A stretch of DNA of 64,000 bases from Candidatus Bathyarchaeota archaeon UBA233 (GTDB lineage Archaea; Thermoproteota; Bathyarchaeia; Bathyarchaeales; UBA233), in contig DAZI01000065.1 of assembly GCA_002507245.1 (NCBI GenBank), forward strand, positions 1,949-65,948, given 5' to 3'. This document shows positions 7,696 to 52,538 of this stretch, one piece after another. The notes under the pieces were generated by a model. The model saw only the letters and a program-made list of their open reading frames with translations. It ran no database searches and was not told where the DNA came from. Both the position numbers and the translations under genes were made by a program. Position 1 is the stretch's first letter, and the number at the start of each line of letters is the position of its first letter.

Positions 7696-8259
7696 GTGAA
7701 AATGCGAAGCTCTATAACCGCTGAATTTATCCAAAACTTTCTTGTAGTGTGGGATCCTTCTGAAGGTTCAGAACTTTACAAAAAAGGCTTCTACGGAAAA
7801 CCCTTAGGAATTCCGAAGCCAAAGACCCCTCAATTCAACGTCCCTCTAGTTCTTGACCTAATGGAAGGCTTGTACTTGGCTGAAAAACGCATAATTCACG
7901 TGGTGGAAGGCTCCAAGAAACGTCGAGTGAGTTTAGAAAAACTAAGGAAAACAGCCCGGAAACTCTATGAAGATTTTGACCAAAAATACATAGTTTATAA
8001 AGACTTACGCGAACATGGGCTTGTGGTTACTCCGGGGATAAAGTATGGCTGCGACTTTGCAGTATACAAACAGGGGCCAGGATTGGAACATGCGCCTTTT
8101 ATGGTTTCAGTTAAGAAATTAGCTGATGAAGTTACTGCAACTGAGATAGTCAAAGCTGGAAGGCTTGCTACAACCGTAAGAAAACGGTTCATAATAGCAA
8201 CTCCGGACACTCAAACGAAAAAAGTCAGCTATTTAATCTTCAAATGGTTTAAAGCTTAA
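7696..8259 (+). CDS. endA: tRNA-splicing endonuclease (EndA, catalytic-type subunit)
   Basis: 187 aa. YKDLREHGLVVTPGIKYGCDFAVYKQGPGLEHAPFMVSV matches the EndA catalytic domain, with Tyr/His and a downstream Lys. Confidence 0.8.
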   Translation: MKMRSSITAEFIQNFLVVWDPSEGSELYKKGFYGKPLGIPKPKTPQFNVPLVLDLMEGLYLAEKRIIHVVEGSKKRRVSLEKLRKTARKLYEDFDQKYIVYKDLREHGLVVTPGIKYGCDFAVYKQGPGLEHAPFMVSVKKLADEVTATEIVKAGRLATTVRKRFIIATPDTQTKKVSYLIFKWFKA

Positions 8260-10257: not shown

Positions 10258-10313
10258 GGAATGAACATAAACGGGCATACCCTATTTGACAATTATTAGC
10301 TTCTCAAGATGAG

Positions 10314-10403
10314 TGGGCCGGGCCGGACTTGAACCGGCGACCTCAGCCTCGTAAGGGCTGCTTTAGGTCCAAGAGATGTCCTACCATGCTAGACGACCGG
10401 CCC
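10314..10403 (-). tRNA. tRNA-Val (anticodon UAC) with a 16-nt intron at non-canonical position 25/26
   Basis: Minus strand: GGGCCGG TC GTCT AGCATGGTA GGAC [ATCTCTTGGACCTAAA] G CAGCC CTTACGA GGCTG AGGTC GCCGG TTCAAGT CCGGC CCGGCCC A. Removing the bracketed 16 nt gives a 74-nt cloverleaf. CCA is not encoded. Confidence 0.8.
10362..10377 (-). other. putative tRNA-Val intron (bulge-helix-bulge)
   Basis: TAGG (exon) pairs with CCTA (intron) as a 4-bp helix. It is flanked by the 3-nt bulges ACA and AAG, with an inner hairpin TCT-CTT-GGA. Confidence 0.65.
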
Positions 10404-10701
10404 CCTCGGCAAATATAAGCCTACGTTTTTTTGGCTTATTAATTTTCGTACATGTCCGAAAAACGTTGGCATAAAAATATGTAATATTCCTCCCTAGTTA
10501 CTTTTTAGAATAAGAATATTTTAGTTCGCGAACTTTTTATCTGTTTTTGGATTCCAAGCATCCAAAATATGGGGGAAATAAGGAATAAACGAACAAATAG
10601 TTATTAGAGAAGCTAGGGACAGCGATCGTGAAGCAGTTTTTAAGTTCTGTGAGAAAACTTGGAGCTGGGGAGACTACATTCCACGAGTATGGGACATATG
10701 G

Positions 10702-11463
10702 ATGAAAGAACAAGATGGGAAAATTTTTGTGGCAACAATAAACGATGTCCCGGTTGGGCTGTCTCGAGTTAAAGTGGACATAAGCAAGAAGGAAGCGTGG
10801 TTAAGTGCGGCAAGAACCGCCCCAGAACATAGACGTAAGGGTGTAGCCACGGCTATCGCTAAAAAATGCTTGGAATATGCAAAACAAAAAGGTGCTAGAA
10901 AGGCGAGACTCGTAACATCCTCAAATAATAAGGCTGCTCGCATAGTGCTTCAAAAACTTGGATTTGTCCCAATTGCTGAATTTGTAGAAATGACCTGCGA
11001 AAAAATTGAAATGAAGAAAAGTCAAAAATCAAGGATGGGCCATCTACAAGATCTTGAGCAAACATGGAATTTTTTACAAAATTCGGAGGTTTTTCATAAG
11101 TCAGCTGGTTTATATACTGTTCTTTTTCGCTGGTACTCGCTCTTGCCACATGATTTGGAATTTTTCATAAGAAACGGAAAAGCTATTGTTTATGAATATG
11201 AAAATCAGGTTCAAGGCTTACTCCTGATTGATGATTCTACCGCTAAAGCATGGCAGGAAAACACTATTCAAACATGTTATGTTGACGGAAATGAGGAAAC
11301 CTTGGCTGACATGTTAAGATTCTTGTTAACCCATTGTTATAAGCGAGATATAAAAAGAATTTATGGTTTCACCTGTAAACATAATCCCATAATTTTTGTC
11401 ATGAAGGAATTTGGCTTCAAGGAATCGGATGACGTGGAAATAGTCTACGAGAAGAGACTATGA
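10702..11463 (+). CDS. GNAT-family N-acetyltransferase with a C-terminal extra domain; 5' end unresolved
   Basis: RRKGVATAIAKKCLEYAKQKGARKARL is the acetyl-CoA-binding motif A. In-frame sequence upstream of ATG 10702 (IVIREARDSDREAVFKFCEKTW...) looks like GNAT strand beta1 and helix alpha1 but has no ATG/GTG/TTG. Confidence 0.65.
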   Translation: MKEQDGKIFVATINDVPVGLSRVKVDISKKEAWLSAARTAPEHRRKGVATAIAKKCLEYAKQKGARKARLVTSSNNKAARIVLQKLGFVPIAEFVEMTCEKIEMKKSQKSRMGHLQDLEQTWNFLQNSEVFHKSAGLYTVLFRWYSLLPHDLEFFIRNGKAIVYEYENQVQGLLLIDDSTAKAWQENTIQTCYVDGNEETLADMLRFLLTHCYKRDIKRIYGFTCKHNPIIFVMKEFGFKESDDVEIVYEKRL

Positions 11464-11811
11464 TGAGACATGTTTTATGAAAGCTTTAGGTGTATATTGC
11501 AGTATTCCTCGTGCATGATAAGCAAAACCCTTAGCCACTAGTACCTTCAGAATCTTCCCTGGGAATAATCGGTTTTTGAGCAGTATTTCCAAAGCATGTG
11601 TATAGTTCCGGTTTAACTCACGTACAGCTAAAAGCTGCTGCTTCCTTGAAAGAGCGTAATCCTTGCATTCCACAAGGTACGCTAAGCTCATGTCAGGTTT
11701 AACAGCTAAAACGTCGCAGTGATTTCGACGGACAAAAACGATGTATCCCTTCTTTCTGAAAGCATCCGCAACAGCATCTTCCAGTTCAGCTCCACTCATT
11801 TTCTCCAACAC
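11458..11811 (-). CDS. small PD-(D/E)xK nuclease-fold protein (Hjc/Mrr-catalytic-domain-like)
   Basis: 117 aa. ELEDAVADAFRKKGYIV...CDVLAV...YLVECKDY gives an E...D...ExK arrangement. Confidence 0.4.
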   Translation of the reverse strand: MLEKMSGAELEDAVADAFRKKGYIVFVRRNHCDVLAVKPDMSLAYLVECKDYALSRKQQLLAVRELNRNYTHALEILLKNRLFPGKILKVLVAKGFAYHARGILQYTPKAFIKHVSS

Positions 11812-11983: not shown

Positions 11984-12436
11984 ATGCCGAGGGAATTTCG
12001 TCACATAGTGAGAATTGCGGAAACAGATATAAATGGCACTTTGAAAGTGCCGTATGCGATTTCAAACATTAAAGGAATAGGGATAAACCTAGCTCACCTC
12101 ATAATTAAACGGGCTGGAATAAACCCTGAAACAAGAATAGGCTTCCTATCTGATGAGGAAATCGAAAAAATAGCAGATGTTATAACCCACCCGGCCAAGT
12201 ACAATATTCCAGACTGGTACTTAAATCGAAGAAAGGATTTAGAAACCGGTAAGAATCTTCTTGTAATAGGCGCTGATCTCACATTTAGGGTGAAGACTGA
12301 CATTGAAAGAATGAAAGCTATACGATCTTGGCGCGGATACCGTCATGCTTATGGGTTAAAGGTTCGTGGGCAGAGAACAAAAACAACGGGTAGAATTGGA
12401 AAGGCTGTGGGCGTCAAGAAGAAGAGGAGAGGTTGA
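11984..12436 (+). CDS. rps13: 30S ribosomal protein S13
   Basis: [33 protein letters not shown]...[22 protein letters not shown]. Confidence 0.92.
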
Positions 12437-12441
12437 ACCCC

Positions 12442-13011
12442 TTGGGAGACCCCAAGAAACAAAGGAAGAAATATGAAACTCCCCGTTTTCCATGGCGCGC
12501 TGACATTTTACAAGAGGAACTAAAAGTCCTGGGTCAGTATGGGCTTAGGAATAAACGAGAACTTTGGCGACATAAAACTATGGTTTCAAATTTCCGGAGC
12601 ATAGCTCGTTCTCTTTTGGGAAAAACAAAGGAAGAAAGACAGGTATTGGAGAAACAGTTACTATCAAAACTTTACAGACTTGGGGTTCTTCCAGAAACTG
12701 CAGTTTTGGATGATGTATTAGACTTAACAGTGGAAGATATACTTGAACGTAGGCTTCAAACAGTAGTTTTTCGAAAAGGTCTAGCGAAATCCATATACCA
12801 AGCCCGTCAACTCATAACCCATGGGCATATCGCTGTGAACAACCGAAGGGTAACCGTCCCAAGTTACCTAGTAACAAGAGAAGAAGAAGATAAAATTACC
12901 TATGCCCCTCAAAGCCCCTTGGCAAACCCGGAACATAAGCTACGACAAACTCTCATGGCAACCACTATGGGGCAAACCGAGACAGGAACCGAGGGTACTG
13001 GTGAAGGATAG
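12442..13011 (+). CDS. rps4: 30S ribosomal protein S4
   Basis: (M)[17 protein letters not shown] is the canonical archaeal S4 N-terminus if TTG 12442 is the start. The ORF track starts 9 nt earlier, at 12433. Confidence 0.9.
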
Positions 13012-13013
13012 GT

Positions 13014-13424
13014 ATGAGTGAAAAATCCTCTTCAACTAGAAAGGAAAGATGGGGCGTAGCTCACATATATAGCTCCTATAACAATACAATAGTTCACATA
13101 ACCGACATATCTGGGGCTGAAACCATTGCAAGAACATCTGGAGGGATGTTCGTCAAAGCTGACCGAATGGAATCCTCTCCATATGCCGCTATGCGAGCTG
13201 CTATGGCGGCCGCAACCATAGCTAAAGACAAAGGAATAACAGCAATACACATAAAAGTACGTGCACCAGGCGGTTCAAAGGCAAGAACTCCCGGTCCAGG
13301 GGCTCAAGCAGCTATACGTGCATTAGCCAGAGCTGGTTTTCGCATTGGACGAATAGAGGAAGTTACTCCATTGCCCCACGATGGGACACGAAGAAAGGGT
13401 GGAAGAAGGGGACGAAGAGTTTAG
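13014..13424 (+). CDS. rps11: 30S ribosomal protein S11
   Basis: [33 protein letters not shown]...[43 protein letters not shown]. Confidence 0.92.
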
Positions 13425-18920: not shown

Positions 18921-19020
18921 TGGCGGGCCCGCGGGGATTTGAACCCCGGATCTTCGGCTCCGGAGGCCTGCGCATCATATCGATGATTCGACGCCTTAAT
19001 CCGGACTGGGCTACGGGCCC
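18921..19020 (-). tRNA. tRNA-Arg (anticodon CCG) with a 21-nt intron at non-canonical position 29/30; CCA encoded
   Basis: Minus strand: GGGCCCG TA GCCC AGTCCGGATTA AGGC G TCG [AATCATCGATATGATGCGCAG] GC CTCCGGA GCCGA AGATC CGGGG TTCAAAT CCCCG CGGGCCC G CCA. Splicing restores the 5-bp anticodon stem TCGGC/GCCGA. Confidence 0.8.
18968..18988 (-). other. putative tRNA-Arg intron (bulge-helix-bulge)
   Basis: GCGU (exon nt 24-27) pairs with GCGC (intron 3' end) as a 4-bp helix. Bulges are CGA and AGG. The inner helix AUCAU/AUGAU has loop CGAU. Confidence 0.65.
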
Positions 19021-52206: not shown

Positions 52207-52538
52207 GGACGGTGGGTCCTGAAGCTCGACGCCTAGTATCCGCCAACCCAAAGCGTTCCCGTTGCTCATACCCGCACTCCCTTGAGCGCTAAACGTCCAA
52301 GCTTAGGTTGCTCCCTCCCGGGCCTGGCCAGGTTCACTTGGTGAACATGGTGGTCAGCCTCCCTACGAAGGCTGCCCCATGACCGTTAGCCCCAAGGGAC
52401 GGGTAGTCATTGTTTAAGGAACGCGGAGTTGACGGGCTTAGGCGCCTCACTTCAGCTTCAGCCCGTCCTGTAGAGGGTTTACGGTCGAGGCCGATGCCTC
52501 TCAGGGGACCCCTAGCCCCCCGCCTAGACCCACCGCCC
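52207..52538 (-). ncRNA. signal recognition particle RNA (7S/SRP RNA)
   Basis: GC-rich block of about 330 nt in AT-rich DNA. The ends pair (GGCGGTGGGTC / GACCCACCGTCC). The minus strand contains CCAGGCCCGGGAGGGAGCAACC (helix 8 with GGGA tetraloop) and GCGCTCAAGGGAGTGCGGG, as in archaeal SRP RNAs. ORF 52334-52540 inside it is spurious. Confidence 0.85.

Follow-up and report, generated by a model that had tools for sequence, protein, structure and literature searches.

An interrupted tRNA-Val(UAC) gene with a predicted relaxed bulge-helix-bulge intron at position 25/26 in a Bathyarchaeota genome

The interrupted tRNA-Val gene and its genomic surroundings

The window analysed here (the whole 64,000-nt stretch of contig DAZI01000065.1 from Candidatus Bathyarchaeota archaeon UBA233) contains on its minus strand an interrupted tRNA-Val(UAC) gene of 90 nt (10314..10403) in which CCA is not encoded, recognised by Rfam model RF00005 and, in its spliced form, by ARAGORN. 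The gene comprises a 26-nt 5′ exon (10378..10403, minus strand) that supplies tRNA positions 1-25 with one extra D-loop nucleotide, a 16-nt intron at position 25/26 (AUCUCUUGGACCUAAA; 10362..10377, minus strand) whose removal restores the cloverleaf, and a 3′ exon (10314..10361, minus strand) that supplies positions 26-73 and carries the anticodon UAC at 10351..10353 (minus strand). Because the D loop has 9 nt, the last nucleotide of the 26-nt 5′ exon falls at standard position 25, which sets the intron site at 25/26. The block had been singled out as GC-rich in a first-pass annotation made from the sequence alone, and its GC content is indeed 63%, against ~41% in the window. The same annotation had named a covariance-model search as a possible source of refutation; the Rfam tRNA model does return a tRNA at exactly 10314-10403 (minus strand), with 42.2 bits (E = 1.4e-5, model positions 1-71; gathering score 29), in an alignment in which the D stem is broken and 27 nt are inserted in the D arm. 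Without ATCTCTTGGACCTAAA (10362-10377), the remaining 74 nt are typed by ARAGORN as tRNA-Val(UAC) with stems of 7/4/5/5 bp, U33 in a 7-nt anticodon loop, G37, the T-loop UUCAAGU, A73 as discriminator and a class I variable loop, all as had been claimed where a claim was made, and the predicted exon junction reads ...GGUAGGAC|GCAGCC.... ARAGORN, a permissive Rfam scan and a T-arm motif scan found no second tRNA-Val gene in the 64-kb window, and the Rfam scan at E up to 1 and the T-arm motif scan found no tRNA-like genes there beyond this one and the tRNA-Arg gene described below.

In the window, A73 of tRNA-Val is followed by CTC (10311-10313, minus strand) and no CCA; CCA does follow A73 in 18 of the 19 orthologues from metagenomes. 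A candidate BRE/TATA-like A/T-rich element, GAAAATTAATAAG, picked out by eye at 10435-10446 (minus strand), precedes the mature 5′ end by 32-43 nt, a distance compatible with an archaeal promoter and a ~10-nt leader on tRNA-Val. A second TTATATTT, at -15 to -8, was considered as the promoter of the gene and rejected as too near to it.

The ribosomal protein S13-S4-S11 gene cluster (11984-13424, plus strand) lies 1.6 kb from tRNA-Val, and a GNAT acetyltransferase gene (10702-11463) and an Mrr-like nuclease ORF (11458-11811, minus strand) stand between the two. The window also holds a full-length archaeal SRP RNA (52210-52535, minus strand; Rfam RF01857, 173.6 bits).

Intron-less and intron-bearing orthologues

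A scan of one genome per species, using a degenerate pattern with room for 0-30 additional bases at the site and with GGTAGNNC and the variable-loop AGGTC held fixed, yielded 23 tRNA-Val(UAC) genes from Bathyarchaeia, Ignisphaera, Caldarchaeum and Desulfurococcaceae, all of them (23/23) uninterrupted. The predicted spliced product aligns with the 23 genes without any gap, supporting the intron boundaries and the 25/26 position originally proposed. The closest intron-less genes, L008 (18-94, minus strand) and L010 (3473-3546, minus strand), both from Bathyarchaeia, are identical to it at 69 of 74 positions, the differences being compensatory pairs in the anticodon stem, and the 5′ exon of the window gene (10378..10403) is identical or near-identical to their positions 1-25. 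Nucleotide 26 of the intron-less genes is G or A, and A in L008.

Locus L010 is moreover syntenic with the window: its tRNA is preceded, in unchanged order and orientation, by the TFE-alpha, HD-domain and DUF2110 genes, whose products are 89%, 68% and 65% identical, respectively, to those of the window. Its tRNA is uninterrupted at this syntenic spot, so the intron is polymorphic within the lineage. In L008 the sequence reads GGAC-ATC-GCC, which is what would remain had 16 nt been deleted in a register displaced 3 nt into the intron. This match, which could be taken for a trace of intron loss by shifted deletion in L008/L010, is probably a coincidence, because the anticodon stem of L008/L010 is one compensatory pair away from that of the intron-less L002. 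The gap placement returned by MAFFT, with nucleotides 26-28 opposite intron nucleotides 1-3 and the junction at 28/29, was rejected: it would set C28 against U42 in the anticodon stem.

Interrupted orthologues were recovered from metagenomes with a pattern that required 6-36 extra bases at the site and fixed GGTAGGAC and the variable-loop AGGTC. The scan gave 19 loci (L024-L042) with inserts of 14-19 nt at the same site which, together with the window, make 20 loci with 12 distinct introns; several of these loci share the synteny of the window, with DUF2110 identities of 47-52%. Across the orthologues, there are pairs in the acceptor, anticodon and T stems with both partners changed (51:63 of the T stem is C-G, A-U or G-C), and these compensatory changes argue for what would be a working tRNA.

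A conserved relaxed BHB motif and its predicted cut sites

The exon sequence UAGG (U20, A21, G22 and G23; 10380..10383, minus strand), which overlaps the 3′ strand of the D stem, can pair with the intron sequence CCUA (10364..10367, minus strand) in a 4-bp central helix, H. Since G22 and G23 are common to both, helix H needs the D stem to be opened. The helix is flanked by the 5′ bulge A-C|A (10377..10379, minus strand), with a predicted cut after C25 (between 10378 and 10377), and by the 3′ bulge A-A|G (10361..10363, minus strand), with a predicted cut before G26 (between 10362 and 10361), and the intron side is closed by an inner hairpin, h′, of 3 bp (UCU-CUU-GGA; 10368..10376, minus strand). 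These elements agree in every part with those drawn by hand in the first-pass annotation, as does the weakness of the outer helix reported there: helix h would have at most one pair, G19-C27 (precursor indices 20-44), whose formation costs energy and breaks the anticodon stem, whereas a strict hBHBh′ motif needs at least two Watson-Crick pairs. Lacking an exon-side outer helix, the motif is a relaxed HBh′ and not the strict canonical hBHBh′. When random or shuffled 16-mers are placed at the site, ~0.5% of them form, in the required register, a 4-bp helix together with an inner helix of 2 bp or more, and the observed quality (a central helix entirely of Watson-Crick pairs and a 3-bp inner helix) is reached with a probability of 1.5-4 x 10^-4.

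The geometry is kept in all 12 distinct introns. Intron nucleotides 1-3 are A, U and C throughout (12/12), the four bases before the last two, which form the intron strand of helix H, are CCUA in 11 introns and CCUG in one, and H has all four pairs in 12/12. Both bulges have exactly 3 nt in every case, the 5′ one reading ACA and the 3′ one AAR (AAG in 10, AAA in 2). The inner helix begins in 12/12 with the same closing pairs, U-A or U-G and then C-G, and amounts in total to 2-4 bp; variation in length falls entirely, and variation in sequence mostly, within the hairpin loop. A third h′ pair was rejected as a conserved element, as pairs of the UG, GC, GU and UA types occur there but are formed in only about half of the sequences, no better than chance, and our claim on h′ is limited to its 2-bp core. 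When the cloverleaf and the BHB structure are imposed on the alignment of the orthologues (A1), the combined structure is 99.5% paired, against 26-53% for slid controls. Among the 12 introns no double-sided covariation was found in helix H, the one change (U-A to U-G) being one-sided. The exon UAGG and AGGTC were fixed by the search patterns, so that invariance on the exon side reflects ascertainment and is not evidence, and the intron side alone of helix H was free to vary.

According to PMC4090602, the 4-bp helix of a canonical intron is closed by nucleotides 34-35, the first two of the anticodon, and splicing takes place at 37/38. It follows from this geometry that the 5′ cut falls after the second unpaired nucleotide and that the 3′ bulge consists of two intron nucleotides and nucleotide 38; applied to tRNA-Val, the same rule places the cuts after C25 and before G26, at precisely the junction that restores the tRNA. 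The rule, which would bear out the cuts after the second bulge nucleotide predicted at the outset, was derived here from PMC4090602, no explicit statement on bulge nucleotides 2 and 3 having been found in PMC6379350. In the part of PMC12397907 drawn on here, the BHB substrate in the ARMAN-2 EndA-RNA structure is cleaved between A14 and A15, which is consistent with the rule without independently confirming the register.

A junction one nucleotide downstream, at 26/27, with the same gene and intron class but with UCUCUUGGACCUAAAG as the intron and A26 contributed by the 5′ exon, has a slim chance of being the correct one. The spliced cloverleaf would be equally valid, L008, the nearest intron-less relative by tRNA sequence, has A26, and the first intron nucleotide is A in all variants. 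Such a junction needs cuts after the third bulge nucleotide, against the canonical geometry (PMC4090602), and in the interrupted genes the last of the three 3′-bulge nucleotides, nucleotide 26 of the mature tRNA if the junction is 25/26, is G or A, mirroring the G or A at nucleotide 26 of the intron-less ones and fitting 25/26. It is only the known geometry of the enzyme that rules out 26/27.

Competing folds of the precursor

The BHB is not the stable predicted fold of the tRNA-Val precursor. The MFE structure of the window precursor (-42.2 kcal/mol) keeps the D stem and pairs GACCU of the intron (10365-10369, indices 35-39) with AGGUC of the variable loop (10339-10343, indices 61-65), and the RNAalifold consensus of the 12 precursors does the same; the GACCU/AGGUC pairing has a probability of ~0.99 at 37 °C and is compatible with 12/12 sequences. 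In the free transcript, helix H has a calculated probability of less than 0.03 over 37-80 °C, and of 0.13 at most when the variable loop is blocked. With that loop blocked, the MFE structure pairs the 5′ strand of the D stem (10389-10394, indices 10-15) with UUGGAC of the intron (10367-10372, indices 32-37), forming a pseudo D stem, and RGAC in the intron is complementary to GUCU in 10 of 12 variants. The BHB, variable-loop and pseudo-D-stem pairings are each compatible with the 12 sequences, and the two conserved options other than the BHB may be a by-product of the AGG/UC repeats. The predicted instability of the BHB in free RNA is no strict bar for relaxed motifs but weakens the case for a BHB intron.

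The favored fold also suggests a different route to splicing, in which the two splice sites would not belong to one BHB: the GACCU/AGGUC conformer, with its D stem closed and the GACCU/AGGUC pairing stacked on the anticodon stem, would offer a helix-bulge-helix half-site at the 3′ splice site, and the 5′ site would be recognised separately or after refolding. The dominance of this conformer in the single-sequence and consensus predictions and the acceptance of half-sites and bulge-helix-loop substrates by CSL-type enzymes (CSL, Crenarchaea-specific loop; PMC3241643) speak for such a route, which we nevertheless hold to be slimmer still in its chances than a 26/27 junction. Its bulge would have 4 nt and not 3, its 5′ site would lie at the end of the D stem without a flanking helix pair, and it leaves unexplained both the invariant intron nucleotides 1-3 and the A's of the 3′ bulge. 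In addition, AGGUC was fixed by the search pattern, and we estimate that chance alone would give about one 5-bp Watson-Crick match between 74 nt of exon and a 16-nt intron. The BHB was retained as the productive conformer because it alone sets both cut sites symmetrically and explains the invariant intron nucleotides 1-3 and the A's at the 3′ site. We infer that this conformer would be captured or induced by the enzyme, and we note the competing folds as unexplained.

The intron is polymorphic at the syntenic locus, being present in the window and in the metagenomic clade and absent from L010, and GACCU has three mutually exclusive pairings. The element could conceivably act as a folding switch that times the formation or modification of the D arm, or the intron-less state could stem from a recent loss through a deletion displaced by 3 nt; we regard such readings as unlikely.

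A splicing endonuclease with a Crenarchaea-specific loop

An ORF on the plus strand, 2 kb from the interrupted tRNA-Val (7696..8259; start called at 7702 by JGI), encodes the catalytic (alpha) subunit of a tRNA-splicing endonuclease, EndA (PF01974, 1.4e-28; PF02778, 1.5e-12), with a CSL. Its best solved relatives, A. pernix 3P1Z_B (E = 8.5e-41), S. tokodaii 2CV8 and P. aerophilum 2ZYZ_B, are the catalytic subunits of crenarchaeal (alpha-beta)2 enzymes; the alignment with the homotetrameric M. jannaschii enzyme does not start before residue 51. No gap is needed to align the segment GIPKPKTPQF with the CSL of A. pernix (DVEKPRGADF), in which the conserved K44 is matched by K41 and R46 by K43, likewise a positive residue. 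Residues Y124, H132 and K163 align with the catalytic triad of the A. pernix alpha subunit, H132 falling on a residue that is Ala in the 3AJV sequence. No paralogue of the alpha subunit that could serve as beta was found by phmmer among the window ORFs (best E = 1), a search that covers 64 kb of the genome and concerns subunits that are very divergent.

The ability to cleave D-loop and relaxed introns has been traced experimentally to K44 and the specificity loop (PMC3241643, PMC5829648, PMC12397907), and HBh′ introns in the D arm are cut in vitro by CSL-type enzymes (PMC3241643, PMC5829648). The EndA encoded in the window, judged by its sequence, is presumed to be the enzyme that removes the tRNA-Val intron. 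In the window the EndA gene stands between PhoU_div and TFE genes, and no EndA match was found upstream of TFE in L010, L034 and L042.

Predicted splicing of tRNA-Val and comparison with known introns

These comparisons establish the gene and its exon junction (against the intron-less orthologues) and show that the motif is conserved and that a suitable enzyme is present. The 10314-10403 block (minus strand) is most probably (probability about 0.88) a functional tRNA-Val(UAC) gene with a 16-nt, protein-spliced intron of the BHB type at position 25/26, the excision of which we infer. In the proposed pathway, the D stem of the precursor would open and U20-A21-G22-G23 would pair with CCUA of the intron in the 4-bp central helix, flanked by the ACA and AAG bulges and closed on the intron side by the short hairpin in an HBh′ arrangement. 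EndA, with its lysine-bearing loop, would then cut after the second nucleotide of each bulge, at the phosphodiester bonds predicted above, an RtcB-type ligase would presumably join C25 to G26, and the D stem would re-form after ligation.

It is very improbable that the locus is instead a decaying pseudogene, a tRNA-Val gene put out of action by 16 inserted nucleotides that are not spliced out. The lack of the insert in L010, the closest relative by protein identity, would suit such a history, but the insert is found at the same site in 20 loci, in 12 distinct sequences whose edges are conserved while the interior varies freely, in genes whose exons are conserved with compensatory changes in the stems and whose synteny is conserved, and the window has no second tRNA-Val gene.

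Non-canonical intron sites, 20/21, 22/23, 25/26 and 29/30 among them, are listed for Crenarchaeota and Nanoarchaeota, with the intron of Pyrobaculum islandicum tRNA-Pro(UGG) and the split tRNA-Glu(UUC) of Caldivirga maquilingensis as examples at 25/26 (PMC4090602). The first-pass description of D-arm introns as a lineage-restricted trait consequently needs qualification, since they are not rare and 25/26 was already catalogued as a non-canonical position (PMC4090602). The crenarchaeal 25/26 introns share with the tRNA-Val intron the insertion point, the short length and a 4-bp helix with two 3-nt bulges, and are often of the relaxed HBh′ form in hosts with an (alpha-beta)2 EndA carrying a CSL, as here. 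Those introns belong to Thermoproteales and to other tRNAs, whereas the present one lies in a Val UAC tRNA of Bathyarchaeia-like affinity, and the likeness drawn here is one of position and motif. With the D-arm introns proven biochemically, it has in common that the D arm must unfold, the relaxed motif and the dependence on the lysine of the specificity loop, but the tRNA-Val case is known from sequence, comparative pattern and the enzyme gene alone. The canonical 37/38 intron, of the strict hBHBh′ form, shares the central helix, the bulge geometry and the predicted cut after the second bulge nucleotide; the tRNA-Val intron differs from it in lying in the D arm instead of the anticodon loop, in lacking the outer helix h and in having the mature D stem as a competitor.

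A literature search found no paper specifically on the tRNA introns of Bathyarchaeota. The intron of tRNA-Val is confirmed as a real and ordinary member of a known intron class, in an unusual but catalogued place. Its mechanism and insertion point are textbook matter for TACK archaea and of small scientific weight, the chief value of the case lying in annotation and in the panel that it offers to enzymology: the 12 natural intron variants and the intron-less syntenic relatives form a set of substrates for defining which features of an HBh′ motif a CSL-type endonuclease requires.

Mis-typing of interrupted tRNA genes and a second interrupted tRNA

On the unspliced DNA, ARAGORN reports a 90-nt tRNA-Val(GAC), in which a mismatched anticodon arm is built from the intron and the true anticodon arm is relegated to a long extra arm. 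The initial assertion that no uninterrupted cloverleaf fits the block was, as worded, too strong, for ARAGORN does force one; the fold is, nonetheless, an artefact that is unconserved in the orthologues. A genuine uninterrupted tRNA-Val(GAC) with a long extra arm, as output by ARAGORN for both window and precursor, is refuted by the orthologues, which the program types as Arg, Ser, Leu or '???' or misses altogether, its 'anticodon stem' contains a C-A mismatch, and what passes in it for an 'extra arm' is aligned by Rfam as the anticodon arm, perfectly formed and carrying UAC. That 'Val' is common to this fold and to the true gene is a coincidence. The -i option made ARAGORN read the precursor as a tRNA-Thr(GGU) whose anticodon loop holds a 15-nt 'intron', a spurious call that was rejected because the program models anticodon-loop introns only.

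Run without an intron model on the 19 intron-bearing orthologues (L024-L042), ARAGORN returned nothing for 5 and a wrong or undefined anticodon for 14, so that all 19 were missed or mis-typed, in keeping with the earlier remark that standard callers often miss such tRNAs. These results indicate systematic mis-annotation of tRNAs in these MAGs, and the tRNA complements and codon-reading inventories derived for Bathyarchaeia MAGs with bacterial-style callers will therefore be wrong.

The window contains a second interrupted tRNA gene, a tRNA-Arg(CCG) (18924-19020, minus strand) whose CCA, unlike that of tRNA-Val, is encoded, and which ARAGORN wrongly labels 'Asp(atc)'. Its 21-nt intron (AATCATCGATATGATGCGCAG; 18968-18988, minus strand) lies at the non-canonical position 29/30, and its motif, which obeys the geometry seen in tRNA-Val, has a central helix of GCGU with GCGC, the bulges CGA and AGG, a 5-bp inner hairpin that is present in the unconstrained fold, and no outer helix. 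Both tRNA-Val and tRNA-Arg thus have relaxed introns at non-canonical positions, as expected of a host with a CSL-type enzyme. In the Rfam alignment the interruption of tRNA-Arg appears as a 32-nt insertion in the anticodon arm.
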